A stretch of DNA of 64,000 nt from Chromatiales bacterium (GCA_027010265.1 JALVCE010000122.1:681-64680); one strand, 5' to 3'; shown: positions 43,754-64,000, counted from the first letter of the stretch. Numbers and translations are program-made. The notes: generated by a model not told the origin, from the letters alone.

Positions 43754-44215
43754 TTAACCGCCGCAGCCACCGATGGTGACTTTGACTGTCTTTTTCGCGC
43801 TGTGCAGTTTGCCGCCGGATTTGACCACTGCGATCAAGTCCGAGGTTTTGCCCATTTTTACGCGGGTCGAGACAAATCCCAATGTGTTACTACCCAAGTC
43901 GAATGAACAGGCCAGGGGTGAAGGGTTTTTGGCGATGACGACGCTGATAGAGTCAGCTTTCATGTCAGTGGACACTGTGATGGGTACCACAGCGCCATTT
44001 TCGGCAATGTCCGGAGCCTTAATCTTGATGTCGCCGCTCTCGGAAAGATCGCTTGTGCCCAGCAGTGCATTAAGTGCGTCATCCACGGTCTTGGCCTTGA
44101 AGGCCTTTTCTGGCCAAGCGGCCAGAACCATACGGGGCGCCAGCAAGCCAGCACTTGCGGCAACGCCAAGCATTCCACCGGCGACAGTGCCTTTTAGGAA
44201 GGTTCTACGTTTCAT
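43754..44215 (-). CDS. soxY: SoxY sulfur-carrier protein
   Basis: Tat signal RRTFLK and the C-terminal GGCGG swinging-arm motif. Confidence 0.95.
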   Translation of the reverse strand: MKRRTFLKGTVAGGMLGVAASAGLLAPRMVLAAWPEKAFKAKTVDDALNALLGTSDLSESGDIKIKAPDIAENGAVVPITVSTDMKADSISVVIAKNPSPLACSFDLGSNTLGFVSTRVKMGKTSDLIAVVKSGGKLHSAKKTVKVTIGGCGG

Positions 44216-46971: not shown

Positions 46972-47445
46972 GTGATGTCCGATGAAAAGAAACTGGCAAT
47001 TATTGCAACCAAGGGTTCGCTGGACTGGGCGTATCCCCCGTTCATCCTCGCCTCCACGGCGGCGGCTCTGGGCTACGAGGTTCAGATTTTCTGTACCTTT
47101 TACGGTTTACAGTTGCTCCGCAAGAAGATGGATTTGAAGGTGACGTCACTGGGCAACCCCGGCATGCCCATGCCCATGCCCATGCCGGTCATGTTGCAGG
47201 CCCTGCCAGGTATGCAGTCCATGATGACGGTGATGATGAAACAAAAGATGAAATCCAAGGGGGTGGCCAGTCTGGAAGAACTGCGCGAACTGTGTATTGA
47301 GGCGGATGTGAAGCTCATTGCCTGTCAGATGACCGTGGATTTGTTCGAGTTCAGCACCAACGATTTTATCGATGGCATCGAATATGGTGGTGCAGCTACT
47401 TTCTTCGAATTTGCCGGGGAATCGGACGTCTGTTTGTTCATCTGA
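46972..47445 (+). CDS. DsrE/DsrF-like family protein (COG2210 / DsrE3-type)
   Basis: 157 aa: KLAIIATKGSLDWAYPPFILA ... IACQMT (candidate active Cys). Contains a Met/Pro-rich insert, GMPMPMPMPVM. Confidence 0.8.
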   Translation: MMSDEKKLAIIATKGSLDWAYPPFILASTAAALGYEVQIFCTFYGLQLLRKKMDLKVTSLGNPGMPMPMPMPVMLQALPGMQSMMTVMMKQKMKSKGVASLEELRELCIEADVKLIACQMTVDLFEFSTNDFIDGIEYGGAATFFEFAGESDVCLFI

Positions 47446-47553: not shown

Positions 47554-48822
47554 TCAAAAGTGAGTGTTGACCCCAAATGCAACGAGATGGGCAGAGAGCT
47601 TGTAAGTGCCATTGAAGGCATCGGTGCCGTTGGGGTCGGTATCCCCAGATCCCAGCCGGGTGAGATAACTGTTGGCCGGGGCATTGATTTCCCGGTCCTC
47701 GGCCTGGACGTACATGTAAGCGAATTCCACGGTCCAGCCGGCCTGTTCATGGGCCAGCCCCAGGCTGAAGGTTTGTCGGTCGTTGCCCGGTACCCGTGCG
47801 GAGAAAAAGTCGTCATTCCCAGGGGTTCCATCGAAGGAGTAACCGAAGCGTAACTGGTCGGTGGACGATAATTCATAGCTTCCTCCCAGTCGGTAGGCCG
47901 TGGCGTCTTTCCAGTCATTTCTGCTGATGATGGGGCTGCTCAGCGGGGGGCTGCTGGAGTGGTTGACCTCGATGGTGTCAAAACTGCTCCAGCCGGTGCG
48001 CTCAACATCCAGCTCCATGGCCAGTCGATCATTGAACTGATAACGCGCGCCCACCTGCAGCAGACTGGGAAAATCGATTTCCGCATCAGCATTGCTGACC
48101 GAGGAGCCAATCAGAGTGCCGTCAACGGTGCCATTGACCTTGACCTTCACGTTGGAACGATAAGACAGCCCCACGCTCCAGTTGTTTTGTGCATGCAGCA
48201 GGCCGATGTTCCAGCCGTAGTCCTGCCCGCTGCCGGAGATGCGGATGGACTGGGTATTGAAGATCAGTTTGCGCACTTGGTAATTGTCGATGCCCAGGGC
48301 GATGCTGGTATTGCCGAAACGATAGGCCACATTGGGGTTGACGTTGAGCATCTCGATCTTGCTGTGTTCGGGCTCCAGAAAGGCAACGCCAAGTGTAGCG
48401 AAGGTATCAAAGGTGCCCGCTTGCCAACGGGTTTCCAGGCCGAAGGGCGCATTGATGCCGACGCCCCATGACCAGTTGTTGTCGATGAGGTTACTGGCGA
48501 ACACATTGGGCACCGCTACAGTTTCTTTGCCCTGGCTGGCTACTGAGGTGCCTCCGTCCGGCGTCACACTGATATCGGGCTGGATGAAAATGGCCCCCAC
48601 CACAAGCTCGCCCTGTGTTTGAAATCCCGTCGCAGCGGGATTGTATGGCAGGGCGCCGGGAGTATCGGGATTAGCGACCATGGCATTGGACATGGCCGTG
48701 CCAGCGGTAGACAGCTCCGGCAGCCGGAAACCGGATGCCAGGGTGGCAGAGGAAAAGCTGGATGAAAACAAGACGCAGGACAGCACAGCGCCTGTTTGCA
48801 GATATGCACGAGTTTTTTTCAT
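47554..48822 (-). CDS. FadL/OmpP1/TodX-family outer-membrane transport protein
   Basis: Signal peptide, the N-terminal hatch motif GFRLPELSTAGTAMSNA..NPA, alternating beta-strand pattern, and a terminal F. Confidence 0.8.
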   Translation of the reverse strand: MKKTRAYLQTGAVLSCVLFSSSFSSATLASGFRLPELSTAGTAMSNAMVANPDTPGALPYNPAATGFQTQGELVVGAIFIQPDISVTPDGGTSVASQGKETVAVPNVFASNLIDNNWSWGVGINAPFGLETRWQAGTFDTFATLGVAFLEPEHSKIEMLNVNPNVAYRFGNTSIALGIDNYQVRKLIFNTQSIRISGSGQDYGWNIGLLHAQNNWSVGLSYRSNVKVKVNGTVDGTLIGSSVSNADAEIDFPSLLQVGARYQFNDRLAMELDVERTGWSSFDTIEVNHSSSPPLSSPIISRNDWKDATAYRLGGSYELSSTDQLRFGYSFDGTPGNDDFFSARVPGNDRQTFSLGLAHEQAGWTVEFAYMYVQAEDREINAPANSYLTRLGSGDTDPNGTDAFNGTYKLSAHLVAFGVNTHF

Positions 48823-49166
48823 GATATTTGTGGTCCGATAAAAGTCATTGGGTTGGCGTTTGTTTCCGCCGTATTAAATCATAAAAAACAAGATGGCGAT
48901 GTGGGTATTTTCGGATGTTTTTGCAGCACATCTTCTTATTGCCAATTACTGAGTTACTAAAAATAAGCAGATAATAATATTCTAAACAATATAACTAATA
49001 AATCGTTTATACGCTTATATAATAATTCGAGTATATTTAACGTTGACAGTGAGTAATATACGCACAGTCTTAAAAGATATAGTTTTAATATTGCTGAGGG
49101 ATGCATACTTGCCGGGATTGGCTTTTTTGATCTAACAAACGTTAATTGAATGTTATGGAGGTGGAT

Positions 49167-50465
49167 ATGAAGCGAACAATGAAGAGTCTTCTGGCGGTAA
49201 CAGTATCAGCAGCGCTGTGCACGCCGATAGCGGCAATGGCCACCAATGGTTATTTTGCGCATGGTTATGGCACCAAGAATAAAGGCCTGGCTGGAGCTGG
49301 TGTGGCGTTACCCCAGGATTCGATGATCGCAGCCACAAACCCTGCGGGGATGGTCTTTGTGGGTAATCGCCTGGATGTGGGTGCAGCCATTTTCAGTCCG
49401 AATCCGCGTTCTTACACTGTGACAGGAAATCCTTCGGGTGCCCCCGGCACGTTTGGACTGGCTCCCGGAAAAGTAGAAAGCGAGGATGGTGTTTTCCTGA
49501 TCCCCCATTTCGGCCGTAACTGGATGCTTGATGCCAACAGTTCGGTGGGTGTTACGGTGTATGGTAATGGTGGTATGAATACCGAATACAAAGGTACTCC
49601 CGGTACCTTTGGCGCAGGTACCGCAGGTGTGAATCTTGAACAGTTGTTTGTGGGCGTCACCTATGCCCGCAAGATCAATGATAAGGCCTCCTGGGGTGTG
49701 ACCCCGATTCTTGCTTACCAGCGTTTTAAGGCGGATGGTCTGGCGAATTTTGCGCCCTTCTCATTGGATGCCAATAATTTGACAAACAATGGCGTGTCCA
49801 CCAGTAGCGGATATGGTTTGAAGCTGGGTGTGCAGGGTGAGGCAGTACCGGGTGTGACCCTGGCAGCGTCTTACCAGAGCAAAATGTCCATGAGTGAGTT
49901 TGATGAATATTCCGGGTTGTTTGCAGAAAAGGGCGACTTTGATATTCCAGCAACGGCGACACTGGGCGTTGCCTGGGCAACATCAACCGATACGGTACTG
50001 ACCTTGGATCTTCAGAAGATCTATTACAGCACCATCGCTTCCATTGCGAATCCCATTTCCAACCTGACCAGCCCTACGGGTTGCGGTGGAGGTGATACTA
50101 CTCAGTGTCTAGGTGGTTCCAACGGCGCGGGTTTTGGTTGGGAAGACATGACTATCCTCAAGCTCGGTTATCAGTGGGCTACCAACAACGGTTGGACATG
50201 GCGCGCAGGTGTGAGCAAGGGCGATATGCCGATTCCTTCTTCCGAGGTTATGTTTAACATCCTTGCCCCAGCAGTGATGGAAAAACATTTCACCTTTGGT
50301 TTCACCAAGGAAGTGGGTACCGACAATGAGTTCAATTTCTCGGCCATGTATGCACCCAATGCCAGTGTCAAGGGCCCTAACCCCATGGAGGCGCCTGGCC
50401 AGCAGAGTATTGAGCTGGAAATGACCCAGTGGGAGCTGGAAGGCAGCTGGGCAGTCAAGTTCTAA
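49167..50465 (+). CDS. FadL/OmpP1/TodX-family outer-membrane transport protein (second, divergent)
   Basis: Signal peptide, NGYFAHGYGTKNKGLAGAGVA ... NPAG, and a terminal WAVKF. Start taken at MKRTMKS. Confidence 0.8.
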   Translation: MKRTMKSLLAVTVSAALCTPIAAMATNGYFAHGYGTKNKGLAGAGVALPQDSMIAATNPAGMVFVGNRLDVGAAIFSPNPRSYTVTGNPSGAPGTFGLAPGKVESEDGVFLIPHFGRNWMLDANSSVGVTVYGNGGMNTEYKGTPGTFGAGTAGVNLEQLFVGVTYARKINDKASWGVTPILAYQRFKADGLANFAPFSLDANNLTNNGVSTSSGYGLKLGVQGEAVPGVTLAASYQSKMSMSEFDEYSGLFAEKGDFDIPATATLGVAWATSTDTVLTLDLQKIYYSTIASIANPISNLTSPTGCGGGDTTQCLGGSNGAGFGWEDMTILKLGYQWATNNGWTWRAGVSKGDMPIPSSEVMFNILAPAVMEKHFTFGFTKEVGTDNEFNFSAMYAPNASVKGPNPMEAPGQQSIELEMTQWELEGSWAVKF

Positions 50466-50569: not shown

Positions 50570-51487
50570 ATGCTTATTAAAAGATTGCCGGCCCTGCTGC
50601 TTGCCGGCTTGCTGCTGGGTTTGGTGGGTGGCGCGCAGGCGGCTGAAAAATTGTTCCCCTTTGTACTGGCCTCAACCGGCTCGGGTGATGTGGCTGCGAC
50701 GCTGAGCGAGGTAAAGGCCAAGTTGAGTGGCGCGGGTTTCGAGCTGGTGGGGGAATATTCGCCCTACGATAAAGCAGTTATCCTCATCGTCACATCCGAG
50801 GCCCTGAAAAATGCGGCGGCGAAATCCACGTTTGGTGGCTATGCAGCAGGTCAGCGGGTTTCCGTTACCAAGGTGGGCGATGAGATTCAGGTTGCCTACA
50901 CCAATCCGGTGTACATGGCCAATGCCTACCGGATGAAAGTAACCTTGCAGGATACGGCAGACAGGTTAAAAGCCGCCTTGGGGGCTATAAAGCAATACGG
51001 TCCCGAAGAGGGGATGGAAGCGGAGGATATTCGCAATTACCATTACATGTTTGGCATGGAATACTTTGATGAACCCAGCGTGCTGGCGGAATATAAATCC
51101 TTCAAGGAAGCGGTTGATAGAGTGGAAGCGGGGCTGGCGGCCAAAAAGGGAGGAGTGTCCAAGGTATATCGTATCGATGTGCCTGGAAAGGATGAGAGTG
51201 TGTTTGGTGTCCATCTCACCGATGGCTGCAGCAGTGACAAGTTCATTATGGGGCATATTGATTTCAAGCCCATCCGTTCCACGCCTCACCTGCCTTATGA
51301 AATGCTGGTCTCCGGCAACAAGGTGTACGCGCTGTACGCACGCTTTCGTATCGCCATCAATTTTCCTGACCTGAAGATGATGGGCGCCAACAGTTTCTTT
51401 AAGATCATGTGTGCGCCGGATGCTATTGAAGAGGCCTTGATGCAGGCTGCCGGGGTGAACAAATCAACAGACGAGGACGAGTTCTGA
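50570..51487 (+). CDS. exported protein of unknown function
   Basis: Signal peptide LLLGLVGGAQA|AE. 305 aa with no motif I can name. Confidence 0.6.
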   Translation: MLIKRLPALLLAGLLLGLVGGAQAAEKLFPFVLASTGSGDVAATLSEVKAKLSGAGFELVGEYSPYDKAVILIVTSEALKNAAAKSTFGGYAAGQRVSVTKVGDEIQVAYTNPVYMANAYRMKVTLQDTADRLKAALGAIKQYGPEEGMEAEDIRNYHYMFGMEYFDEPSVLAEYKSFKEAVDRVEAGLAAKKGGVSKVYRIDVPGKDESVFGVHLTDGCSSDKFIMGHIDFKPIRSTPHLPYEMLVSGNKVYALYARFRIAINFPDLKMMGANSFFKIMCAPDAIEEALMQAAGVNKSTDEDEF

Positions 51488-51591: not shown

Positions 51592-52743
51592 TTACTTTGT
51601 CAGCAAGCGATCCAGCAGGCTTGGGTCGGATTCGCTGTAGGTTTTTATGAGCGCGCCGATCTGCGGGTTGTTCTCATTGGCCGCAATGGCTGCGGCGGTA
51701 TCGCCGAGAAGATTGGCGTGTTTCAAATCCGCATCATTGCGCAGTAACAACTCGGTGGTTTTGCGAAAACCACCCAGCACGGCGAGTTGCAGTGGCGAGT
51801 TACCCGTTGCGTTGGCGGTATTTATATTGGCGCCGGCATCGATCAGTGCCTGCAGCACGGCATAGTTACCACGCATTGCTGCAAAATGTATGGCGCTGTT
51901 GCCGGTATGTGTCACCAGGTTGGTGTCGGCGCCGTGGTTGATGAGCCATAGGGCCAGCTCGGTGTGATCCGCCTTGATGGCCCGCATCAGCGGTGTCTGA
52001 CCATGCTTGTCGGCACTGTCGATGTTGGCGCCGTTTTTTACCAATTGCCGGGTAATCACCATTTGGCCGCCGTCGGCCGCAAGCCACAGCGCGGATTCGC
52101 CATGCTTGTCGGTGGCATTTATCGCAGCCCCGAACTGTAAAAGTAATTGCGAGATACGTGGATAGCCCAGCCGCGCGGCGATGCTTAAAGCGGTTCTGCC
52201 CTGGTGGGTTTTTATGTCTGGGTTGGCATGATTCTTCAGCAAATAACGCACCACAGGGCGATGGCGCATGCGTACGGCCCACATCAATGGTGTTCGGCCA
52301 TGATTATCCTGACTGTCGAGCTGCGCCCCCTTCTGATGCAGTAACATGACGGTTTTGCGGTGTCCCTGCCGTGAGGCCCAGGCCAAGGCGGACAGTCCGT
52401 CTTTATCCCGTTGATTGATGGCGGCGCCCTGTTTGAGCAGGACTTTCAGGGTGTCCTGATTGCCATTCCACGCGGCGTAAATCAGTGCGCTGCGTCCGTC
52501 TTCATCCATGGCATTGATATTGTGCGGCTTTTTCAGCAGGCGCGTCACAATTTCCGGTTGTCCACGCCAGGCGGCATACATTAATTCGGTCCAGCTGCTG
52601 AACAGCTTGGACTTGGGGTTGTCAATGGGGTGGCCGGCATGCGCAACGGAAGAACTATACAGCGCTACTAACCCTGCCAGCAGTAGTGCTGTGGACAATC
52701 TTCCCATGGACGGGGTGAGCATTGATCTGCGGATGGTCTGCAT
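51592..52743 (-). CDS. periplasmic ankyrin-repeat protein
   Basis: Signal peptide (LLLAGLVALYSSSVAHA) followed by about 9 ankyrin repeats (G.T.LM.A......V..LL..GA). Start trimmed to ATG 52743. Confidence 0.85.
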   Translation of the reverse strand: MQTIRRSMLTPSMGRLSTALLLAGLVALYSSSVAHAGHPIDNPKSKLFSSWTELMYAAWRGQPEIVTRLLKKPHNINAMDEDGRSALIYAAWNGNQDTLKVLLKQGAAINQRDKDGLSALAWASRQGHRKTVMLLHQKGAQLDSQDNHGRTPLMWAVRMRHRPVVRYLLKNHANPDIKTHQGRTALSIAARLGYPRISQLLLQFGAAINATDKHGESALWLAADGGQMVITRQLVKNGANIDSADKHGQTPLMRAIKADHTELALWLINHGADTNLVTHTGNSAIHFAAMRGNYAVLQALIDAGANINTANATGNSPLQLAVLGGFRKTTELLLRNDADLKHANLLGDTAAAIAANENNPQIGALIKTYSESDPSLLDRLLTK

Positions 52744-52941
52744 TGTTGCTGGGGGACTCCTTGTTGCTTTCTGTGCTGGCAGGGTGTCGAACTGTTGAGC
52801 CAGCCTGGTGGCCCACTTATACTGCAATTCTGCGCGGCGGAAAACCATGGGTCTGATTTTTCGAAAACAGCGGTAAGCAGGGGCCGAGTCCTGGGCGATA
52901 AGTTCCAAAGTTAGGTAGACAGTTCCTGAAGTAGAGCAAAG

Positions 52942-54384
52942 GTGATAATGGGCAATCCATGTAGTACCCAATCTGGCAGGGGTCCCCACCCAATCTGGCA
53001 GGTCATTGCATCGCTGATAGTGTTACAGGCGTTTGCCAGTCTGGTGTCTGCCGATGACGATCCAGCGTACGGTTCCCTTGATGAAACCCCTTCCGCCTTT
53101 GCCTTTTTCAGGGAACAGGCCGAGCAGGGCAGTGAGGAGGCGCAATACAATCTGGCGGTGATGTATGAGACAGGCTGGAGCGTGGCGGTCAATCATCGGC
53201 AGGCCGTTCGCTGGTTTCGAGAGGCGGCCAGACAGGGCAATGTGAACGCCCAGCTGCGTTTGGGTATGCTCTATTACCTGGGGCTGGGCGCCCGGCAGAG
53301 TAATATCAAGGGCGAAAAATGGATACGCAAGGCGGCAAAGCAGGGGCATCCCCTGGCGAAAGAACTGAATCGTCTGCTGTTTAAGGAAGAATTGCCCGAT
53401 GGCTTGTCCGCGGCGACAGTAATGTCCCGTGTGCGTGATGCCTATCTGGCGGATGAGCAATCGGCGGGAGCAGTGCTGGCGTCTATTACCCGACAGGCCC
53501 AGCGCAAGAATGAGCGGCTTGCCGAACAAAAAGAAGAGACCACCATCCGTGAGCGCAGGGCTCAGCGTGGCATTGAAGGCCCGGTGAGACCCGGTTTTTC
53601 CCCTGCGCAAAGTGTGGAACGCATTGGCAGTGCAGTGCCTGACTTTATCTCTGATGACTCAGTGGAAAAAAATCAAACCCTGTCCCGTGGCAACATAGCC
53701 ACACTCCGGCTTCAGGCGGAGCGGGGCCTGGCCAGTGCGCAATACAGTCTGGGGCGGATGTATGAAACCGGCCTGAAGTTGCCTGTGGACAAAAAGCGGG
53801 CCATGGAATGGTATGAGAAAGCCGCCCGCCAGGGATACGCGGATGCGGAATATCGTCTGGGTATTGCGCTGTACTATGGCACCGGCCCCACTCGTGATGA
53901 AGAAGAAGGTAAAAAATGGTTACGGCTGGCGGCCGGGCACGGTCATCCGGTGGCGAAAAATATGATGAATAAACTGGACGGGGAAGGTGTCGCCGCAACG
54001 CGTAATATGTCACTGGCGGTTCGGTGGTATCTTGAGCGCGCCACGCAAGGTGATCGTGAAGCCGCGTTTCACCTGGGAAAGATTTATGAACATGGCTGGG
54101 GTGTAAGCGGCGATCTTTCCGAAGCGTTTAAATGGTACCGGCTGGCCGCGCAGTCAGGGAATGAGCAGGCACAGTTACTGGTCTCGCAATTGCAGCCGCG
54201 CTTGGGTGAGAGAAAGGAAGAGGATCCGCCGTCATGGCTGGCAACACAACTGTCAGGCTATGGTTTGCCGCAATGGCTGGCGCATCCGCTGGTCATTGCA
54301 TCCATCGTTCTGGTGATTGTCTGGCCCTTACGACCGTGGCGCCGGAAAAAGGGACAGACCAATGGTGAGCTGCCCGAACCGTAG
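52942..54384 (+). CDS. Sel1-repeat (SLR/TPR-like) protein with C-terminal TM anchor
   Basis: Signal-like N-terminus, repeated AQYNLAVMYETGWGV / A..WY.KAA.QG units, and a terminal TM followed by RRKK. Confidence 0.85.
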   Translation: MIMGNPCSTQSGRGPHPIWQVIASLIVLQAFASLVSADDDPAYGSLDETPSAFAFFREQAEQGSEEAQYNLAVMYETGWSVAVNHRQAVRWFREAARQGNVNAQLRLGMLYYLGLGARQSNIKGEKWIRKAAKQGHPLAKELNRLLFKEELPDGLSAATVMSRVRDAYLADEQSAGAVLASITRQAQRKNERLAEQKEETTIRERRAQRGIEGPVRPGFSPAQSVERIGSAVPDFISDDSVEKNQTLSRGNIATLRLQAERGLASAQYSLGRMYETGLKLPVDKKRAMEWYEKAARQGYADAEYRLGIALYYGTGPTRDEEEGKKWLRLAAGHGHPVAKNMMNKLDGEGVAATRNMSLAVRWYLERATQGDREAAFHLGKIYEHGWGVSGDLSEAFKWYRLAAQSGNEQAQLLVSQLQPRLGERKEEDPPSWLATQLSGYGLPQWLAHPLVIASIVLVIVWPLRPWRRKKGQTNGELPEP

Positions 54385-54404: not shown

Positions 54405-55772
54405 TTACAAAGTACCGCGTTTGGTTTCGATTTCAACGCCCAGTGACTTGAGCATGGGGGTGGGCAGGATGCCGCCGGCACAAACAATGACGGCATCATT
54501 TTCAATAGTGACCTCTCCATCTTCCGTATTGATAGTTACCTGCTTCTCTGTAATTTCCTTTACTGTGGACTTGAGTAAGACAGTCATTTTCTTGGCATTG
54601 GCCGAGGCGCTGACCTTGTCGACATTTTTCGGGTTTGCCTTGGCGAATGCACCACTGCGGTAAGAAAGGGTGACGGTAGCACCGGGTTCGTCGGCGATGG
54701 TGATAGCGGCTTCCAGGGCACTGTTTCCGCCGCCCACCACGAGAACGTGTTTGTTGCGGAATTCCGCGGGGTCCGCAAGACGGTAAATGACCTTGCTTTG
54801 TTCTTCACCGGGGACACCCAGCTTGCGGGGGGTGCCGCGTCTGCCAATGGCCAGCAATACACTTTTTGTGTGATACGTGGCTTTGGGGCTCGTTACCATA
54901 AAACCATCTCTGGTTTTCTCGATGGATTCCATGCGTTCCATGCAATTGATCCTGACACCGGTTTGCTTTTCCACGTTTTGCCAGAAATCCATGAGGATTT
55001 CCTTGGTGGTTTCATTGAATTTTGCCTGGCCGACAATGGGTAACAATACCGGCGCGGTCATGACAATTTTTCCTCGGGGGAAATGTGCCACTGTCCCCCC
55101 CAGGGTTTCCTGTTCCAGGGTGACATAATTCAGGTTATGTTCGTGGGCATCGAGGGTGGCGGAAAAGCCGGCCGGGCCTGCGCCGATGATCACGACGTCA
55201 TAGGGAACGCTGGACTGGGAGTTGCTGATGGCCTGGCGGATGGACTCCATGGCCTGGCGTCCCTGCTCAATGGCGTTGCGAATCAGACCCATGCCGCCAA
55301 GCTCGCCGGCAACAAACAGACCGGGTACGTTGGTTTCGAAATTGGGGTTCAACATGGGGATATCGACACCCCGTTTTTCATTTCCGATCACCAGGGAGAT
55401 GGCATCCGTGGGGCAAGCCGTCTTGCAGGCGCCGTGGCCGATGCAGTGGCTGGGGTTGACCAGGTGCGCCTTTTCACGAATCACGCCGAGAACATTGCCT
55501 TCCGGACAGGCGTCCACACAGGTGGCGCAGCCAAGGCAGATGTTGTGGTCGATGATGGGGTGCAGTGAAGTGGGGGGATCGGCCAGGCCCGCCTGTTTGG
55601 ATTCTTCCAGGATGCGCTGGCTCTGTTCGTCACGTCGTTTTTTTACGGCACGATAGATGAACCACGCCAACGCAATGGGCACCAAAAAGACCAATACATC
55701 ATAGGCACTGTTTATGCCCGCCACCGACAGCAAATACAGTATGTCGGTGAGAAACTCAGAGCGTTGTTCCAT
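54405..55772 (-). CDS. membrane-anchored 2x FeS ferredoxin-domain / FAD-NAD(P)H oxidoreductase (TrxR-like fold)
   Basis: N-terminal TM followed by KKRRDE (cytoplasmic body), CLGCATCVDACP and CIGHGACKTACP, then DVVIIGAGPAG (FAD) and VLVVGGGNSALEAA (NAD(P)H). Confidence 0.85.
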   Translation of the reverse strand: MEQRSEFLTDILYLLSVAGINSAYDVLVFLVPIALAWFIYRAVKKRRDEQSQRILEESKQAGLADPPTSLHPIIDHNICLGCATCVDACPEGNVLGVIREKAHLVNPSHCIGHGACKTACPTDAISLVIGNEKRGVDIPMLNPNFETNVPGLFVAGELGGMGLIRNAIEQGRQAMESIRQAISNSQSSVPYDVVIIGAGPAGFSATLDAHEHNLNYVTLEQETLGGTVAHFPRGKIVMTAPVLLPIVGQAKFNETTKEILMDFWQNVEKQTGVRINCMERMESIEKTRDGFMVTSPKATYHTKSVLLAIGRRGTPRKLGVPGEEQSKVIYRLADPAEFRNKHVLVVGGGNSALEAAITIADEPGATVTLSYRSGAFAKANPKNVDKVSASANAKKMTVLLKSTVKEITEKQVTINTEDGEVTIENDAVIVCAGGILPTPMLKSLGVEIETKRGTL

Positions 55773-56093
55773 AATCCGTTATCTGTAACCCATAAAGAAA
55801 TCATGGTGATTGAGCGACTCTTGTGTATTTCGGTGCATTTCGGGGCTTGTACACACTGGCCCCGGGGCGCCGCCGATATAGTGGGTCGTTTTATGAAAAT
55901 CAATCACTTGTGGGAAACATATCCTTGCTGATGCCTAATTGCAATGCCTCTCGAGCGCATTGACAAGGGCCGGACGCTAGGGGATACAATGGCGTCACGT
56001 GGCCAAATATGGCACGGAAGCGGTATTTCATGCCCAGGTATTGTTCAACCTCGGTTGCTCAACGGGGGCTTTACATGGAGCAAATGCAGTCAT

Positions 56094-56852
56094 ATGAGCA
56101 GCCAATCCTCTTTTCTCACATGGTTACGTCATCCCGCCAGCATGGTGCTGATCATCGCCCTGGTGCTGATGCTTGTGGTGATGTCCGAACAATCGCCCCG
56201 GCAAGGGGATGGCACCACGGCGCCACCCCTGGCGCCTGAGCCCGCCAGCGTCGAGGCGGCACCGGCAGGCGCGCCGGCGGCCCCGGCCAGGATGGGTGGG
56301 GAATTGCCACGCATCGTGCGTCAGTTATCCGCCCCTGGGCAGAGCGCACCGGCGGCGAAAAAACCAGGCAGCGCCGCAGCCCCCGGCCGGTTACAGGCCC
56401 CCGATCTGGGCAGCCTGCTGGGTCGGCTGGAGGACAAGGTGAAGGCTGAACCCAGCAATATGGGCAATCGCCTATTGCTCGCGCAGACCTATAACGAACT
56501 GGGCCTGGGGGACAAGGCGCTGCAGGAGGCGCGCGCTGCCCGGCAGCAGGATCCCCGGCATGCCCGGGCCAAGCTGGTGTTGGCCGCTATTCTCAGTACC
56601 CGTGATGACCCGGCCGGTCTGCAGGAGGCCGCAGAGCTGTTGCAGGAACTGACCAGTGATTCCCAAATCAAACAATACCTGGTGGCCATGTACCAGGGGG
56701 ATGTGGCCATTCGCCAGGGCGATCATGACAAGGCGCTGCGTTTTTGGCAGCGGGCGCTGGATGAGATGCCGGTATCCGATAATCGTCGTGCCAGTATTGA
56801 AAAGCGCGTTGCTGAGCTGTCCGCCAAGGCATCTTCATCGGTTGAGGGCTGA
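56094..56852 (+). CDS. membrane-anchored Pro/Ala-rich TPR protein (CcmI/NrfG-like?)
   Basis: A TM (MVLIIALVLMLVVM), a P/A-rich linker, then TPR-like helices (LLLAQTYNELGLGDKALQEA...). Start uncertain: the ORF is open from 55944. The functional analogy is inference only. Confidence 0.6.
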   Translation: MSSQSSFLTWLRHPASMVLIIALVLMLVVMSEQSPRQGDGTTAPPLAPEPASVEAAPAGAPAAPARMGGELPRIVRQLSAPGQSAPAAKKPGSAAAPGRLQAPDLGSLLGRLEDKVKAEPSNMGNRLLLAQTYNELGLGDKALQEARAARQQDPRHARAKLVLAAILSTRDDPAGLQEAAELLQELTSDSQIKQYLVAMYQGDVAIRQGDHDKALRFWQRALDEMPVSDNRRASIEKRVAELSAKASSSVEG

Positions 56853-57030
56853 ATAAAGCGGGAATGGGACGAGTGGTGGGGCTGGTCACGACAGGGTCAC
56901 GAGGTGTGGGCAACTCCACCCGTTTGTCTCGGCATTTTTCGGGGGCTTCGTACAAAACATTGCAGGGTTTGAATCTGTATTAGGCAGGGTATTCTGGAAA
57001 ATCGGTCGAATAAAGTGGTATGGAGCTGTA

Positions 57031-58074
57031 GTGACAATGATGCTGTTTTTCAGATTCGCCAAACAGGAAGCGGTGGGTACCGAAGAGGGTGCGTCATTTT
57101 CGGCGGGGTCGGCGAAGATGAACGGTAGCCAGCAGGCGGGGGCGCTTACCCCGGCAACGCCCCCTTTGGAATTTTCCGCGGTGAAACTGCTGTCCGACCG
57201 CTACCCTTCTTTTATCGCCCGCGCCAACGAGGCCCGCTCGAAAAGTGAGTCACGGATCGTACTCATCGTTCTGTTGTTCATTTCTGCCCTGATGCTGGCC
57301 GCCTGGGCTGTCTGGGATCCGCGTTATTTTCACTCCGACAGCGACCTGGTGTACAACATGGGACTCTTCGGCGGCATCATGATGCTGGTGACCCTGCTCT
57401 ACGCCATGCGCAAGCGGATTCGTCTGATGCGAAAACTCGGCGAGCTGAGTTACTGGTATTACTTGCATCTGACCATGGGTGTGCTGGGTCCGGTGCTGAT
57501 CATTTTTCACAGTTCATTCACCATGAAGTCGCTGAACAGCTCGGTGTCGATGATCGCCATGTTGTGTATTATCGCCAGTGGTATTTTTGGTCGATACGTC
57601 TATACCCGCATTGGTTATCGCGTGCACAGTCATCTTCTGGCGATTCGTGATACGGAAGAACGCCTGGCCAGGGCAATGGAAAATTTCCAAGGTAAGGAAA
57701 CAGACGCCATTCGCAAATCCCTTACAGTGTTGACCATGTTGGTGGTGAACATGCCGCAATCACTGTTCCATTTGCCTGCGCGTTTTTTCGCGCTGCGCGC
57801 CAGGGCCGCCAAGTGTTATGTCGACGGGATCGGGCATATTTCAGCCATGTTAAAACAGCGCGCGCAGGAGGAAGACTGGGACAAGCTGACGTACCATGCG
57901 GAGTTTGCGCGGGAAAAGCGCCTGTTTCGTGAGCATATCAATGCCCTGGTGAAAATCGGCCAATTGCATTTTTATGAACGATTGCTGGTGGGTTGGCGAA
58001 TTTTTCATGTTCCCCTGATCTTTATTCTGGTCATCTCGGGACTGGTGCATGTTTTTGCGGTGCACTGGTATTAA
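57031..58074 (+). CDS. 5-TM membrane protein with two H-x13-H motifs (putative di-haem b electron-transfer subunit)
   Basis: TM3 is YLH-LTMGVLGPVLIIF-H and TM5 is FH-VPLIFILVISGLV-H. Both are predicted to run in the same direction by the positive-inside rule. I do not recognise the family. Confidence 0.65.
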   Translation: MTMMLFFRFAKQEAVGTEEGASFSAGSAKMNGSQQAGALTPATPPLEFSAVKLLSDRYPSFIARANEARSKSESRIVLIVLLFISALMLAAWAVWDPRYFHSDSDLVYNMGLFGGIMMLVTLLYAMRKRIRLMRKLGELSYWYYLHLTMGVLGPVLIIFHSSFTMKSLNSSVSMIAMLCIIASGIFGRYVYTRIGYRVHSHLLAIRDTEERLARAMENFQGKETDAIRKSLTVLTMLVVNMPQSLFHLPARFFALRARAAKCYVDGIGHISAMLKQRAQEEDWDKLTYHAEFAREKRLFREHINALVKIGQLHFYERLLVGWRIFHVPLIFILVISGLVHVFAVHWY

Positions 58075-59680
58075 GCATTTTCTTTTTCTGGTCTTCCTTC
58101 TTGCCCGTCTCCCGGGCAGGGCGATAGTTTCTGTCCTGTTGCTGGGCTTATGTCTGACCCCGCTGGCCGAGGCGGGTGTTAGTCCCCTGGAGAGGATGGA
58201 GGGTTTGGTGATGCCGGGCAAGGTCATCAAGCGCCATGCAAAATTTGAAAAGAAATGTGACAAATGTCACTCCGGGTTTGACCGCATGAAGCAAAGCGGG
58301 CAATGCAGGGATTGCCACAAGGCCATCGCCACGGACATCAAAAAAAGCCGTGGCTTTCACGGCAAGATTCCCCGCATCAAGGAGCGTGAATGCCGCACCT
58401 GCCACTCGGAGCATCTGGGACGCGATGCGGACATCGTGCAGCTGGATAAAGAATTATTCGACCACAATAAAACCGAGTTCAAGCTGGCCGGCGCCCATGT
58501 TTCGCTTGATTGCAACGAGTGCCACAAGAAGGTAGGCGTTTACCGTCAGCCGGAGCGCCATTGTTCCGATTGTCACGAGTCGGACGAGCCCCACAAGCAG
58601 CGTATGGGCAAGAAGTGCGAAAACTGCCACATCGAAGGCGCCTGGCTGCCGGCCTTTTTTGATCATTCCAACACCAAGTTCAAGCTGCGAAATGCGCATC
58701 GCGAATCGGCCTGTTTCAACTGCCATGTCAATGAGCGTTATGACGACACACCTCGCAATTGCTACTTTTGTCACCATCTCGATGATGTGCATAACGGGGA
58801 TCGCGGGATTCGCTGTCACGATTGCCATACCGACGAGCGCTGGTCGCAGATTCTTTTCGATCATGAAAAAGATACGGATTTTCCCCTCAGGGGTGGCCAT
58901 GCGCGGCTCATTTGCAAGGATTGTCACCAAGGACACATCTTTGAGGATGAGGTAAAAACCACCTGCTACGGCTGTCACGAAAAGCATGACGTACATTTCA
59001 AGCGTTATGGCAAGCGCTGCGATGTGTGTCACACAGAGAAGAACTGGATCGAGATTGATTTTGATCATGAGGTGGATACCAGCTTCCCGCTCAAGGGCAA
59101 ACACAAGGATTTAAGTTGCGCCGTCTGTCACCGGGAGGTGTTGTTCGAGGAACAGACCCCCAATACCTGTTCCGACTGTCATCGCCTGGATGACGCCCAT
59201 GAGGGTCAGGAAGGGGAGCAGTGTGAGCAATGTCATAATGAAAAAGGCTGGACCGAGCAGGTGGTTTTTGATCATGACATTACCAAGTTCCCCCTCCTGG
59301 AATCCCATATTTTGCTGACTTGCGAGGATTGCCATGCCTCGAATAAATTCAAGGAAGCCAAGGTGGCGTGTACTTCCTGCCATGAAGGCGATGATGTACA
59401 CGAGCAAAAACTGGGGGAACAGTGCGAACTTTGTCACCAGCCGTCTCACTGGATGGCCTGGGACTTTGATCACAACGAATTGACGGATTTCCCACTGGAT
59501 GGCAAGCACGAAGGCCTGGATTGCCATGCCTGCCACACCGAGCCGGTGGATGAAGAAATCGAATTGCCGAAGAACTGCTACGGGTGCCACGAAAAGGACG
59601 ATGTGCACAATACCCAGTTGGGCAAGCGCTGCGAAACCTGCCACATCACGGAGTCATTCAAAGAGATCAAGATCAAGTAG
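58049..59680 (+). CDS. 21-haem c-type cytochrome built from c7-like trihaem modules
   Basis: Signal peptide, 21 CXXCH motifs, and six FDH-x(4-6)-F-x-L-x-G/S-x-H-x4-CXXCH repeats. Overlaps the upstream gene by 26 nt. Confidence 0.9.
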   Translation: MFLRCTGIKHFLFLVFLLARLPGRAIVSVLLLGLCLTPLAEAGVSPLERMEGLVMPGKVIKRHAKFEKKCDKCHSGFDRMKQSGQCRDCHKAIATDIKKSRGFHGKIPRIKERECRTCHSEHLGRDADIVQLDKELFDHNKTEFKLAGAHVSLDCNECHKKVGVYRQPERHCSDCHESDEPHKQRMGKKCENCHIEGAWLPAFFDHSNTKFKLRNAHRESACFNCHVNERYDDTPRNCYFCHHLDDVHNGDRGIRCHDCHTDERWSQILFDHEKDTDFPLRGGHARLICKDCHQGHIFEDEVKTTCYGCHEKHDVHFKRYGKRCDVCHTEKNWIEIDFDHEVDTSFPLKGKHKDLSCAVCHREVLFEEQTPNTCSDCHRLDDAHEGQEGEQCEQCHNEKGWTEQVVFDHDITKFPLLESHILLTCEDCHASNKFKEAKVACTSCHEGDDVHEQKLGEQCELCHQPSHWMAWDFDHNELTDFPLDGKHEGLDCHACHTEPVDEEIELPKNCYGCHEKDDVHNTQLGKRCETCHITESFKEIKIK

Positions 59681-59929
59681 GCGGATCCTGGGGTTGGTTA
59701 TGGGTAGTAACCACGTGCTTTCTACGGTTAATTCGCCCCCGGTGGGACTCGTCTGCCGGGTGTAATTAGCCTATAGTATAAACCTACAATAATACTCGGA
59801 AATGAGGCGGTGTCCGGCGTTTCAGCAAGAGCCGGACGCCTGTGGGTCGAGGCCTGCTGTGTGGCCTTGTGTGCAACAGGATGTAACACAACGTAGGGGG
59901 TAGGCAGTATCAGGGTAGATGCTGTCAAA

Positions 59930-62900
59930 ATGTTGGGTAATCAGGGAGTGGGGCGGTCTGTTTCTGGCCGGCTGGGGATGCTGTTGTGCCTGCTGTTTAT
60001 GGTTATCTTTTCAGCTCCCCTCAGTGCTGCTGTGGTGCCTGATGTTTCGACCTTTGATCACCTGGTTACGGGTTTTCCTCTCGAAGGCCAACATGACATC
60101 ATCGATTGCGAGGCCTGCCACATCGGTGGTGTATTCGAGGTTCTGCCCACCCAGTGCGAGGCCTGTCATGATGGCATACTGGCCATTGGTCAGCCCCCTA
60201 CGCATATTCCCACCCTGGTTTCCTGTGACACCTGCCACAATGCGGTGGGCTTTGCCTTTTCCGCCACCATGGATCACAGCATCATCGGTGATACGACGTG
60301 TGAAACCTGCCATGATGGTGTCAGTGCCACCGGCCTGTCGCCCACGCATATTCCCACCAGCTTGAGCTGCGGCACCTGCCATGTCACCAGTACCTGGTTG
60401 ATAGCGGCGTTCGATCACTCCCTGGTGCAGGAACAGTCGTGCAGTGATTGCCACAACGGCACCTTTGCCACGGGCAAGCATGCGGCGCACATCAACACTA
60501 CGGATGTCTGCGAAAGCTGCCACACCAGTGTGGCCTGGGTGCCGGTGATTGTGGTGGACCATGCCCAGGTGCTGGGTAGCTGCGAAAGTTGCCATGATGG
60601 GTTGATCGCCAGGGGCAAGGGAGTGAATCATGTGCCAACCACTCTGGCCTGTGATACCTGCCATACGGTGAACAACTGGACGGTAGGTGTGTTCGATCAC
60701 TCCACCACCAGCGAGGCCTGTTACACCTGTCACAACGGCACCATCGCCACAGGGGTGAGCGCCAGCCACATCGCCACCACCAAGCAGTGCGATGCCTGTC
60801 ACCTGACCAACCTGTGGGTGCCGGTGTCCACTGTGGATCACGCACAGGTGCTGGGCAGTTGTGTGTCCTGTCACGACGGTGTGGTGGCCACGGGCAAGAA
60901 CCCCACGCACATCGACAGCTCGGATCTCTGCGAGACCTGCCACAGCGCCGAGCTGTGGATTCCCGCCACCACGGTGGATCACGGGCAGGTGAATGGCAGC
61001 TGCGCGAGTTGTCACGACGGTGTGATTGCCAGGGGCAAGGGCGCGACACACATTCCCACCACCGCGGCCTGCGAGCTTTGTCACACGGTCAACGACTGGC
61101 TGGTGGGCGCCTTCGATCACACCGGCATCACCGAGCCCTGCGCAACCTGCCACGATGGCGTCTCGGCGTCGGGCAAGGGCGCAACCCACATCAACACCAC
61201 GGATGTTTGCGAGGCCTGCCATGGGGTCACGGCCTGGGTGCCGGTGAATCCGTTGACGGATCACGCGCAGGTCATCGGCACCTGTGAGAGTTGCCACGAT
61301 GGCGTCATCGCCACCGGCAAGGGCATCAACCACATACCCACCACGGCGGCCTGCGAAGTGTGCCATAGCACCACGGACTGGCTTGTGGCGGTGTTCGATC
61401 ACACCACCACCACGGATGCGTGCGAAACCTGCCATGACGGCACCCTCGCTACCGGCAAAAATGCCACGCATATTCTCACCAGCGATGTGTGTGCCGCCTG
61501 TCATAACGACAGCGGCTGGGTGCCGGCCACCACCGTGGATCACAACGAAACCAAGGGCACCTGCCAGAGCTGTCACGATGGGGTGATCGCCACCGGCAAG
61601 ACCGACAAGACCGGCAGCCACATCAACACCACGGAAGTGTGCAACGCCTGTCACTCGCCGGTGGGCTGGTTGCCGGTGACGCTGGTAGACCATGCCGAAG
61701 TTATCGGCACCTGCGAATCCTGTCACGACGGGGTGAGCGCCAGGGGAGTGGGGCCGACGCACATTCCCACTACCGAGGCCTGCGATGTTTGCCACACGAC
61801 CGTGGACTGGACCGTGGCCGCGTTCGATCACAGCGGCGTGACTGCCGCCTGTATCAGTTGTCATGACGGTGTAACGGCAAGTGGTAAGCTCTCTTTGAGT
61901 GGCGTCCATATCGATACCAGCGACCTGTGTGAAGCCTGCCACGGCACGGCGGCCTGGTCGCCGGCCACGGCGGTGGACCACAACGAAGTGGTGGGTACCT
62001 GCCAGAGTTGTCACGACGGGGTGATCGCCTCGGGCAAGGGCGCCACGCATATTCTCACCAGTGACCTGTGCAACGCCTGCCATGTGTCCACCGCCTGGGT
62101 GCCCGCCACCACGGTGGATCACAACGAAACCCAGGGCACCTGCCAGAGCTGTCACGACGGCGTCATCGCCACCGGCAAGACCGATACCCACATCAACAGC
62201 TCGGATCAGTGCAACGCCTGCCACGCGCCCACCGGTGGCTGGGTGCCCACCATTGCGGTGGATCACAACGAGGTGATCGGCGTCTGCGCCTCCTGCCACG
62301 ACGGGGTGATCGCCACCGGTGTTGGCCCGACCCACGTGCCCACCACCGAGCCCTGCGATGTCTGCCACACCACGGTGGACTGGACGGTGCCGGCCTTTGA
62401 TCATTCCACCACCACTGCGGCCTGTATCAGTTGTCACGACGGCACTGTTGCTACAGGCATGAGCGCCACCCATATCAGCACCTCGAATCTCTGCGAGGCC
62501 TGTCATGTGGATACGGCGTGGATTCCCGCCAGCGCCGTGGATCACAACGAGATCACCACCGTGGGAGTGTGCGAGGCCTGCCATGACGGGGTGATCGCCA
62601 GCGACAAGTCCGCCACGCATATTCTCACCAGCGACGTGTGCGCCGCCTGTCACACGGTCACCGCCTGGGTGCCGGTGACCACGGTGGATCACAACGAGAC
62701 CCAGGGCATTTGCCAGAGTTGCCACGACGGCGTCATCGCCACCGGCAAGACGGACAAGACCGGCAGCCACCTCAACACCACGGAACAATGCAACGCCTGC
62801 CACTCGCCGGTGGGCTGGCTGCCGGTTACCCGGGTGGATCACAACGAGGTCATCGGCAGCTGCGAGTCTTGTCATGACGGCGTGCTGGCCACGGGCAAGG

Positions 62901-64000
62901 GACCCACCCACGTGCCCACGGTGGAGGCCTGCGAAGTGTGTCACCTGGTGACCACCTGGCTGGTGCCCAGCTTCGATCACAGCACCACCACGGACACCTG
63001 CATCACCTGTCACGATGGCATAACGGCAACTGGGAAATCAGCCAGCCACATCAACAGCAGCGATGTGTGCGAGGCCTGTCATTCGAGCCTGGTCTGGGCG
63101 CCGGTGGATCCGCTGGTGGATCATGCCCAGGTGCTGGGCAGTTGCGAGAGTTGCCACGACGGGGTGATCGCCACCGGCAAGGGCGCCACCCATGTGCCCA
63201 CGGTGGAGCCCTGCGAGGTGTGCCACTCCACCACCAACTGGTTCGTCACCGCCTTTGATCACAGCACCACCACGGACACCTGCATCACCTGCCACGACGG
63301 GGTCAGCGCCTCGGGCAAGGGGCCAACCCACATTCGCAGCAGCGATCTCTGCGAGGCCTGTCATAACAACACGGCCTGGGCGCCGGCCACGGCGGTGGAT
63401 CACAACGAGACCATGGGCACCTGCCAGAGTTGTCACGACGGGGTGATCGCCACGGGCAAGAACGCCACCCACATCGACACCAGCAACGTGTGCAATGCCT
63501 GTCACTCGCCCATCGGCTGGGTGCCGGTGACTACTGTGGATCACGCCCAGGTGAACGGCCTGTGCACCGCCTGCCACGACGGGGTCATTGCCACCGGCAT
63601 GGGCCCCACCCACGTGGCCACCAGCGCACCCTGCGATACCTGCCACACCACGGACAACTGGCTGGTGCCGTTGTTTGATCACAGCACCACCACCGACACT
63701 TGTATCACTTGCCATGATGGCATAACGGCCACCGGCAAGTCGGCCACCCATATCGACACCTCCGATGTGTGCGAGGCCTGTCACGTGGATACCGCGTGGA
63801 TCCCCGCCAGCGCGGTGGATCACACTGAAATCACCAATGTGGCGGTGTGCGAGGCCTGCCACGATGGCGTGATTGCCGTGGGTAAAGGCACAACACATAT
63901 CAACACCAGCGACATCTGCAACAGCTGCCATACCCCGGCGGCCTGGGCGCCGGCCAGTGCGGTGGATCACAACGAGGTGCAGGGCACCTGCCAGTCATGC
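59930..64000 (+). CDS. giant multihaem c-type cytochrome, 5' part only (open at window end)
   Basis: The + frame (codon starts congruent to 2 mod 3) has no stop from 59897 to 64000; I checked it codon by codon. Signal-like MLGNQGVGRSVSGRLGMLLCLLFMVIFSAPLSAA. 55 complete CXXCH motifs plus one cut by the window edge, in ~47-aa units. Absent from the ORF track because it has no in-window stop. Confidence 0.85.
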   Translation, partial: MLGNQGVGRSVSGRLGMLLCLLFMVIFSAPLSAAVVPDVSTFDHLVTGFPLEGQHDIIDCEACHIGGVFEVLPTQCEACHDGILAIGQPPTHIPTLVSCDTCHNAVGFAFSATMDHSIIGDTTCETCHDGVSATGLSPTHIPTSLSCGTCHVTSTWLIAAFDHSLVQEQSCSDCHNGTFATGKHAAHINTTDVCESCHTSVAWVPVIVVDHAQVLGSCESCHDGLIARGKGVNHVPTTLACDTCHTVNNWTVGVFDHSTTSEACYTCHNGTIATGVSASHIATTKQCDACHLTNLWVPVSTVDHAQVLGSCVSCHDGVVATGKNPTHIDSSDLCETCHSAELWIPATTVDHGQVNGSCASCHDGVIARGKGATHIPTTAACELCHTVNDWLVGAFDHTGITEPCATCHDGVSASGKGATHINTTDVCEACHGVTAWVPVNPLTDHAQVIGTCESCHDGVIATGKGINHIPTTAACEVCHSTTDWLVAVFDHTTTTDACETCHDGTLATGKNATHILTSDVCAACHNDSGWVPATTVDHNETKGTCQSCHDGVIATGKTDKTGSHINTTEVCNACHSPVGWLPVTLVDHAEVIGTCESCHDGVSARGVGPTHIPTTEACDVCHTTVDWTVAAFDHSGVTAACISCHDGVTASGKLSLSGVHIDTSDLCEACHGTAAWSPATAVDHNEVVGTCQSCHDGVIASGKGATHILTSDLCNACHVSTAWVPATTVDHNETQGTCQSCHDGVIATGKTDTHINSSDQCNACHAPTGGWVPTIAVDHNEVIGVCASCHDGVIATGVGPTHVPTTEPCDVCHTTVDWTVPAFDHSTTTAACISCHDGTVATGMSATHISTSNLCEACHVDTAWIPASAVDHNEITTVGVCEACHDGVIASDKSATHILTSDVCAACHTVTAWVPVTTVDHNETQGICQSCHDGVIATGKTDKTGSHLNTTEQCNACHSPVGWLPVTRVDHNEVIGSCESCHDGVLATGKGPTHVPTVEACEVCHLVTTWLVPSFDHSTTTDTCITCHDGITATGKSASHINSSDVCEACHSSLVWAPVDPLVDHAQVLGSCESCHDGVIATGKGATHVPTVEPCEVCHSTTNWFVTAFDHSTTTDTCITCHDGVSASGKGPTHIRSSDLCEACHNNTAWAPATAVDHNETMGTCQSCHDGVIATGKNATHIDTSNVCNACHSPIGWVPVTTVDHAQVNGLCTACHDGVIATGMGPTHVATSAPCDTCHTTDNWLVPLFDHSTTTDTCITCHDGITATGKSATHIDTSDVCEACHVDTAWIPASAVDHTEITNVAVCEACHDGVIAVGKGTTHINTSDICNSCHTPAAWAPASAVDHNEVQGTCQSC

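Follow-up and report, generated by a model that had tools for sequence, protein, structure and literature searches.

A giant multihaem cytochrome gene of a gammaproteobacterial sulfur oxidiser as the probable large subunit of a PCC3-type porin-cytochrome cluster

The porin-cytochrome cluster PCC3 was defined by He et al. (2017, Front Microbiol 8:1584; PMC5566968) as a set of four parts, namely a porin, an extracellular multihaem cytochrome (MHC), an MHC of the periplasm plus a protein of the inner membrane (IMP), and it was first proposed as a quinone-coupled conduit (He et al., 2017). In that definition the extracellular MHC carries 34 haems in the median, one per 22-39 aa, and is repetitive and rich in T, S, A and G, the periplasmic MHC has a median of 21 haems (range 21-27), and the IMP is a protein of about 300 aa with five transmembrane (TM) helices, an SGxxG motif on TM4 and W-x3-H-x13-H on TM3 and TM5 (PMC5566968). 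The gene order in Sideroxydans lithotrophicus ES-1 is IMP (Slit_1446), periplasmic cytochrome (1447), extracellular cytochrome (1448) and porin (1449) (PMC11429942). Leptothrix cholodnii SP-6 and the Riftia endosymbiont, the latter with a 39-haem extracellular MHC, are further examples, and the largest published extracellular MHCs are those of Amphritea atlantica (63 haems) and Agromonas oligotrophica S58 (85 haems) (PMC5566968). Sulfur oxidisers already reported to have PCC3 are the endosymbionts of Riftia, Tevnia and Ridgeia and, besides these, Sulfuricella (PMC5566968); the literature up to 2025 calls the cluster 'functionally unverified'. Here we describe a stretch of 64,000 nt from a Chromatiales bacterium (GCA_027010265.1 JALVCE010000122.1:681-64680; the whole stretch is called the window), which ends within a gene for a giant multihaem cytochrome c. 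The 5' part of this gene (59930..64000, + strand; 1,357 codons, open at the window edge) occupies the slot of the PCC3 'extracellular MHC'.

On one strand of the window, genes for a TPR protein, an IMP, a 21-haem cytochrome and the giant cytochrome follow one another in this order. The product of 57031-58074 has the motifs of the PCC3 IMP, a helical AlphaFold2 (AF2) model and homology to the IMPs of complete clusters; that of 58049-59680 contains exactly 21 CXXCH, which is the published median of the periplasmic MHC; and the giant combines at least 55 CXXCH at 24.7 aa per haem with the composition and internal repeats of the large MHC. Because gene order, IMP motifs, the 21-haem partner and the features and homology of the giant all match the published definition, we consider it likely that the giant is the large 'extracellular' cytochrome of a PCC3-type cluster in a sulfur oxidiser of the Gammaproteobacteria, where it would pass electrons across the envelope. 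The first-pass annotation of this DNA had implied that the gene is an unusual orphan for a sox-type sulfur oxidiser, a view that is not supported once the two genes directly upstream are seen to make a PCC3 cluster. Nor is a haem-repeat protein of this length unusual in such an organism, as had been claimed, since PCC3 is known in sulfur oxidisers, members with 63 and 85 haems have been published and the family reaches 131. The gene is real, but it is a known large-cytochrome subunit in a lineage and lifestyle where PCC3 has already been reported.

The + frame from ATG 59930 contains 1,357 codons and zero stops up to base 64000, with the closest upstream in-frame stop (TAG) at 59894 and an alternative in-frame ATG at 59978 (Met17), in agreement with the earlier gene call. 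Instead of this frame, the list of open reading frames (ORFs) shows two antisense ORFs, 60011-63013 (1000 aa) and 63038-63970 (310 aa), because it holds closed ORFs only and ORFs running off the window are dropped; the omission had been correctly recognised in the first-pass annotation. The G+C content at third codon positions of the + frame is 0.79, which is coding-like, and reappears as a first-position value of 0.78 in the antisense ORF. Since this mirroring is accompanied by the lack of any Pfam match for the antisense ORF product and by cytochrome matches of the + frame, the antisense ORFs are shadows of the giant gene. DNA repeats within the gene, with periods of 141 and 282 nt, are 74-76% alike and exact repeats of at least 40 nt are absent, and therefore the in-window gene does not look like a collapsed assembly; the artefact that had been named as a possible objection left no sign here. 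A pseudogene, or an unexpressed repeat array that is decayed or mis-assembled, might be suspected from the contigs of relatives, which break or hold N gaps in the same gene, and from the lack of a stop within the window, which leaves the gene end unseen. The stop-free run with its coding-like third positions, the divergence of the repeats, the intactness of all 55 haem motifs and 55 distal His, and a register and N-terminal module conserved with full-length homologues nevertheless make this very improbable. Scanning 55700-60100 for promoters and terminators was of little help; that no terminator-like site turned up on the plus strand between the genes for the 21-haem cytochrome and the giant is weakly consistent with co-transcription.

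The giant contains 55 CXXCH motifs and a 56th cut off at the window end ('CQSC'), in agreement with the earlier count, and their spacing is 23-26 aa except for a first gap of 16. All 113 Cys fall within haem motifs save C20 of the signal peptide. The 112 His comprise 55 proximal ones within CXXCH and 57 extra ones, with one extra His after each motif from motif 2 onwards, a single unit with two and a further two before motif 1, while Met occurs only 7 times in 1,357 aa and never at a repeat position. The protein is a strict alternation of two mono-haem units of about 23 aa, type A (C..CH[DN]G...[TS]GK..[TS]H[IV].T) and type B (C..CH....W.P...[VF]DH), with a periodicity of 47/94 aa, and its composition is dominated by T (14%), V (10%), A (10%), C (8%), H (8%), G (8%) and S (7%). 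The two-haem unit of about 47 aa proposed in the first-pass annotation stands as a unit, with 25 units fitting a relaxed pattern, whereas its strict form is a consensus only and not a literal repeat, being fitted by 6. The proposal that two extra His per two haem sites would supply the count for bis-His ligation was borne out as one extra His per motif. When 26 members (39-53% identical) are aligned over their first 264 mature residues, the CXXCH Cys and His of motifs 1-10 and 11 further His are invariant, and motif 11 is kept in at least 90%; this invariance is strong comparative evidence that each haem has bis-His ligation.

At its N-terminus the giant shows a pair of Arg, a core of hydrophobic residues (Kyte-Doolittle about 2.9) and SAA followed by VV, without a lipobox; this region reads, as before, as a Sec-type signal peptide (predicted at aa 1-34). 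It is followed by an N-terminal module, FDHxxTGFxLxGxHxxxxCExCH, at aa 42-64. The mature in-window part amounts to 137 kDa of protein and about 34 kDa of haem. The strongest Pfam match of the giant is Cytochrome_C7 (PF14522; 1.8e-70, 233 bits, 28 stretches), and Cytochrom_c3_2, Paired_CXXCH_1 and the MtrC/MtrF haem domain match as well, so that the three kinds of hidden Markov model (HMM) recommended for a check, c7, c3 and doubled CXXCH, all recognise the protein. The NCBIfam model TIGR04257 (c7 triheme 'nanowire_3heme' domain) scores 55.6 bits against a cutoff of 40, and TIGR03508 (DmsE/MtrA decahaem) 185.8 bits in 10 partial stretches, under its cutoff of 192.2. The match to TIGR04257 and Cytochrome_C7 is a domain-level resemblance only, the repeat of the giant being dihaem and capable of bis-His ligation throughout. 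A sequence search of the PDB with the giant returned weak MtrC-domain matches (MtrC haem domain II, E 2e-9). Modelled with AF2, residues 38-301 (pLDDT 74.6, pTM 0.47) have almost no regular secondary structure save one-turn helices at CXXCH, as expected because the protein is mostly haem scaffold. As AF2 cannot place cofactors, a Cys/His repeat for another metal centre (e.g. Zn or Fe-S) that mimics CXXCH might be suspected. We find this hardly credible, given that multiple curated c-type cytochrome HMMs match strongly, that outside the signal peptide Cys occurs in CXXCH only and always with the His after it, that a CcmI-like gene lies in the cluster and full ccm operons flank the clusters of relatives, and that the partner gene encodes a 21-haem cytochrome.

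Searched against 5.8 billion proteins, the giant had more than 2,000 relatives, hundreds of them at E = 0. The best 120 relatives are 819-2,374 aa long with 29-89 CXXCH, are named 'cytochrome c3 family protein' at most in their sources, and in 79 cases carry the N-terminal module F[DN]HxxTGFxLxGxHxxxxCExCH directly after the signal peptide. A profile of the 26-member alignment, scored against 1.84 billion representatives, matched 9,705 at E <= 1e-3, 4,607 at <= 1e-10 and 1,632 at <= 1e-30. The largest family members reach 3,592 aa and 131 CXXCH, and the haem count in 254 countable profile matches has a median of 47, with at least 55 in 109 of them; therefore, 55 or more haems are large but ordinary for this family. 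The closest relatives are P0001 (locus L007), P0002 (L001) and P0014 (L002), at 46-48% identity. Their loci are arrays that hold giant cytochromes of up to >3,194 aa beside PKD-domain cytochromes of 840-880 aa and small proteins without family match, and several of the tandem-array cytochromes finish with a run of prolines and, after it, a tail of the GGMGGM type. The label 'Kaarinaea lacus' (NCBI, Nostocales cyanobacterium), attached to a giant cytochrome (P0008) and a PCC3 IMP (P0182), was not used for taxonomy; these two, on contigs of 4.7 and 8.8 kb, are probably contamination by an associated proteobacterium.

The partner genes lie directly upstream. The periplasmic cytochrome c (58049..59680, + strand), corresponding to the PCC3 'periplasmic MHC', is a 543-aa ORF with 21 CXXCH and Pfam Cytochrome_C7/c3 matches, whose true start is probably slightly downstream. 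It is 62% identical to its counterpart in L013, a gammaproteobacterial relative, 40% to that of Ferribacterium (2.5e-125), 38% to that of an alphaproteobacterial metagenome-assembled genome (MAG; L015) and 39% to that of Aquabacterium, and a PDB sequence search with it gave no match. The IMP (57031..58074, + strand; 347 aa, five predicted TM helices), assigned by motifs and homology, has W142-x3-H146-x13-H160, S183-G-x2-G187 and W322-x3-H326-x13-H340, all invariant in 41 homologues, and a helical insert of about 130 aa between TM4 and TM5; its AF2 model is all-helical (pLDDT 80.7, pTM 0.72). Identity to the IMPs of complete clusters is 34% for Ferribacterium (2e-35) and 42%, 29% and 29% for the others, and the best match among species representatives is 73%, the source species being absent from the genome collection searched. 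From its paired His motifs the IMP is a putative dihaem-b transmembrane electron relay. A ferric-reductase (FRD/NOX) or cytochrome b fold was considered for it and found no support, as neither sequence nor fold matched and the H-x13-H pair alone is shared. The first gene of the group (55944..56852, + strand) encodes a TPR protein of the CcmH/CycH (CcmI-like) type, likely a chaperone accessory for apocytochromes; the gene stands at the same place in the gamma relatives, and in alpha- and betaproteobacterial members the cluster is flanked by ccm genes.

Complete clusters of relatives indicate what may follow the giant gene. In Ferribacterium limneticum (L006) the order is IMP (303 aa), 24-haem MHC, 60-haem MHC of 1,627 aa (P0065), outer-membrane protein (OMP) of 785 aa and CcmH-type TPR protein, with an Fe-S flavoprotein divergently transcribed upstream of the cluster; P0065 and the giant are 35% identical over 1,433 aa (BLASTP). 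The alphaproteobacterial MAG L015 and Aquabacterium humicola of the Burkholderiales (L016) have the PCC3 core with barrels of 752 and 809 aa and ccm genes alongside. IMP-based searches also recovered a gamma clade of MAGs labelled Ectothiorhodospiraceae, Thiohalomonadales or Gammaproteobacteria, with IMPs 42-75% identical to that of the window. This clade shares the window order, consisting of M48 peptidase, TusA, DsrE, two FadL barrels, a 305-aa protein, ankyrin and Sel1 in its first half and continuing with flavoprotein, TPR protein, IMP, 21-haem MHC and the large MHC, whole or in large part. Among its members, L013 lies on a contig of 394 kb and has the full set, with IMP, 21-haem cytochrome, a 17-haem cytochrome of 421 aa that carries the N-terminal module of the giant (12958-14223), a 143-aa protein and a 762-aa OMP (14793-17081). 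The last of these ends in GYNYTF and is homologous (4e-38) to the 785-aa protein of Ferribacterium, and the barrels of L013, Ferribacterium, L015 and L016 (762, 785, 752 and 809 aa) are mutually homologous with an aromatic last residue. The large MHC gene thus precedes an outer-membrane barrel in complete clusters of Alpha-, Beta- and Gammaproteobacteria, and for this reason a porin is expected beyond the window edge. The 143-aa protein of L013 (14280-14711) resembles the N-terminal ~130 aa of the barrel, with G-x-I-I-Q-I and Y-E-x-x-V-P-G-G-P in common, and, judged by this likeness, may be a duplicated periplasmic domain.

The slot of the giant differs in content between close relatives. In L005 (13104-15971) it is filled by a complete 955-aa, 36-haem cytochrome with the N-terminal module, after which comes another cytochrome of 63 haems or more. 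A C-terminal module of the form G-K-P-x2-H-C-x5-C-x2-C-H...W...C is shared by L013, L005 and P0002. The syntenic position after the 21-haem gene therefore holds 17 haems in L013, 36 in L005 and at least 55 in the window, which suggests that the repeat array expands and contracts between close lineages and that wire length evolves quickly by repeat gain and loss.

Considering the above results, we propose a plausible model for the working of this cluster. The giant would leave the cytoplasm through Sec, receive its haems from the Ccm system and fold as a thin, mostly loop-built rod in which bis-His haems, stacked edge to edge, form a single-polypeptide wire. Each haem in solved multihaem wires accounts for roughly 0.8-1 nm, so that at least 55 haems would correspond to a wire of >40 nm. 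Published AF2 models of PCC3 cytochromes have been described as elongated and for the most part linear (PMC10734462). According to the positive-inside rule, H146 and H326 of the IMP would lie close to the cytoplasm and H160 and H340 close to the periplasm, a placement that would stack two b haems across the membrane. Electrons would pass, in one direction or the other, among these b haems, the periplasm-spanning 21-haem cytochrome, the porin and the outward-reaching giant wire, with the giant threaded through, or docked on, the barrel and its haem rod pointing away from the cell; candidate outside partners are Fe(II)/Fe(III) minerals, other solids and other cells. Docking of the giant is probably the task of the conserved N-terminal module and of the C-terminal module of relatives, and the middle array of 17, 36 or at least 55 haems may act as a length-variable spacer or conductor; conserved termini with a variable middle suggest docking ends joined by a length-adjustable conductor.

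The same protein could instead stay in the periplasm, like the Geobacter c7-domain polymers GSU1996 and GSU2210, as an electron store or 'capacitor' or as an intraperiplasmic wire, buffering sulfur-oxidation electrons when acceptors fluctuate. Its SPase I-type Sec signal without a lipobox or recognised secretion signal, the 'nanowire_3heme' c7 domain model scoring above cutoff and the closest homologues without an adjacent porin are in keeping with such a role, and capacitor roles for large MHCs have been suggested in the literature (PMC7399161, PMC10734462). We nevertheless regard it as unlikely, because in complete clusters of three proteobacterial classes a large outer-membrane barrel is always next, a rod of at least 55 haems would exceed the width of the periplasm at the rise per haem given above, and the periplasmic role is already filled by the separate 21-haem protein.

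Several observations weigh against the assignment of the giant to an outward-reaching PCC3 conduit. The extracellular location of the large PCC3 MHC is a software prediction in the literature, and in ES-1 proteomes the extracellular PCC3 cytochrome was undetected, with a value of 0 in all conditions (PMC11429942); the giant itself has neither a lipobox nor a known secretion route. Its closest relatives P0001, P0002 and P0014 stand outside PCC3 clusters in tandem arrays of giant cytochromes without an adjacent porin, so that proteins of this kind may function with no porin of their own. The 3' end of the giant gene lies off the window, as would the porin; an exact 68-nt search of genome and metagenome contigs returned 0 matches, and an exact-protein look-up of the 21-haem neighbour gave no record. 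In 9 of 10 syntenic relatives, L003, L004, L008-L012 and L014 among them, a contig end or N gaps fall inside the giant gene, as in L008 with N runs at 15.7-17.0 kb; since short-read assemblies break there, the size and frequency of such genes are probably underestimated in metagenome surveys. On the structural side, the IMP has no Pfam, NCBIfam or PDB sequence match, Foldseek of its model against the PDB gave a best E of 0.54 to unrelated helical proteins, and Foldseek of the giant 38-301 model gave no PDB match at E <= 10. Because neither model has a PDB relative, the 'wire' and 'dihaem b' readings rest on motifs and not on fold.

A further component may be associated with PCC3 at the inner membrane. 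Divergently transcribed relative to the PCC3 genes, a gene at 54405..55772 (- strand) encodes a membrane-anchored Fe-S flavoprotein with an N-terminal TM helix followed by KKRRDE, CxxCxxCxxxCP twice (2x[4Fe-4S]) and a thioredoxin-reductase-like FAD/NAD(P) domain without the redox CxxC. It is 55% identical (4e-160) to the cluster neighbour in Ferribacterium (L006 2731-4029), 65% to that in L013 (7214-8578) and 56% to that in the alphaproteobacterial L015 (456-1751). Across Alpha, Beta (Ferribacterium) and Gamma clusters the identity of 52-65% is higher than for any core subunit, and no such gene was found next to the Aquabacterium cluster (L016). None of the words FAD, ferredoxin, flavoprotein and 4Fe-4S occurs in the text of the 2017 PCC3 paper (PMC5566968). 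The conservation of this neighbour suggests a cytoplasmic, NAD(P)H-linked entry or exit point for electrons. In an extended form of this idea, PCC3 would be a split NOX-like chain and not a quinone-coupled conduit, with the flavoprotein sitting on the cytoplasmic helical insert of the IMP and electrons from NAD(P)H moving through the two b haems and the 21-haem cytochrome to a length-tuned wire. We hold this extended form to be doubtful; if it were true, sulfur oxidisers would have a way to unload reducing power on distant solid acceptors or on partner cells.

The remaining neighbourhood is shared in part with relatives. An ankyrin-repeat protein (51592-52989, - strand) and a Sel1-repeat protein (52942-54384, + strand) are neighbours kept in the gamma relatives, and a protein combining Ank and Sel1 adjoins the alphaproteobacterial cluster. 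As context only, a divergent pair of FadL/TodX-type outer-membrane barrels (47554-48822, - strand; 49146-50465, + strand) and a 305-aa protein without family match (50570-51487, + strand) lie further upstream; the pair is syntenic in eight of ten gamma relatives (not in L014) and the 305-aa gene in about half of them (not in L011-L013), and a link of these proteins to the conduit is possible. Just upstream of the conserved neighbourhood of the cluster are genes of sulfur oxidation, namely SoxB (40415-42139, - strand), a SoxA/TsdA-type cytochrome (42495-43559, - strand) and SoxY (43754-44215, - strand), then an M48 peptidase (44848-46374, - strand), which stands between sulfur-oxidation genes, and a DsrE-like protein (46972-47445, + strand). 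TusA and DsrE are also found upstream of the cluster in relatives. Elsewhere in the window, a bacterial sucrose-phosphate synthase/phosphatase fusion (13830-16034, + strand; TIGR02472, 709 bits) indicates a compatible-solute pathway, and the GC content is 45-53% around 8-18 kb and 62-64% at both window ends.

PCC3 is widespread in Alpha-, Beta- and Gammaproteobacteria, and some of its proteins are among the most haem-dense known. The window adds a clean example from a gammaproteobacterial lineage carrying sox and dsrE, and leaves the basic literature picture of PCC3 unchanged. Its main value lies in the variation of repeat number at one locus, the warning on assembly breaks and the lead provided by the conserved flavoprotein, which is a concrete and testable alternative for electron entry or exit at the inner membrane.

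The Uet undecahaem system (Tenderiales) and the Mto-type porin-cytochrome system of Methylobacter were set aside as comparisons, since they consist of different proteins and have no giant MHC. Among the systems retained, PCC3 as described by He et al. (2017) is the closest, sharing with the window the order of IMP, periplasmic MHC and large MHC, the IMP motifs, the 21-haem partner, a T/S/A/G-rich, internally repeated large MHC with about 25 aa per haem, and a chemolithotrophic proteobacterial host with sox genes. The differences are that no porin is visible in the window, where it would lie beyond the edge, that 55 or more haems are above the published median of 34 and inside the published range, and that the gamma clade adds neighbours unnamed in the 2017 text (Fe-S flavoprotein, ankyrin, Sel1 and FadL barrels). 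With MtrCAB/MtoAB of Shewanella and Sideroxydans the cluster shares the logic of combining a barrel with one multihaem cytochrome in the periplasm and another at the surface, as well as the weak similarity of the giant to MtrC haem domain II and the DmsE/MtrA HMM. In contrast, the DmsE score stays below its cutoff, MtrB-type porin homologues are absent, the window cytochromes are 2-5 times larger, the surface cytochrome is no lipoprotein, and the inner-membrane partner is a putative b-type dihaem protein and not CymA. Geobacter GSU1996 (dodecahaem) and GSU2210 (27-haem), represented by TIGR04257, resemble the giant in their tandem small haem domains with little protein per haem; these c7-domain cytochromes, whose domain HMM is matched by the giant, have likewise been put forward as a wire or capacitor. 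A His-Met haem is present in the c7-type domains of GSU1996, whereas all sites of the giant can be bis-His, its period is two haems per ~47 aa and not three per ~75, and its genomic context is that of PCC3. No sequence or fold relationship of the giant was detected to OmcS, OmcE and OmcZ of Geobacter or to the S-layer or extracellular MHCs of ANME and Methanoperedens, with which it shares the proposed long-range extracellular conduction along a continuous haem chain. The filaments of OmcS, OmcE and OmcZ are non-covalent polymers of subunits with 4 to 8 haems, whereas in the giant the chain would be one covalent polypeptide.

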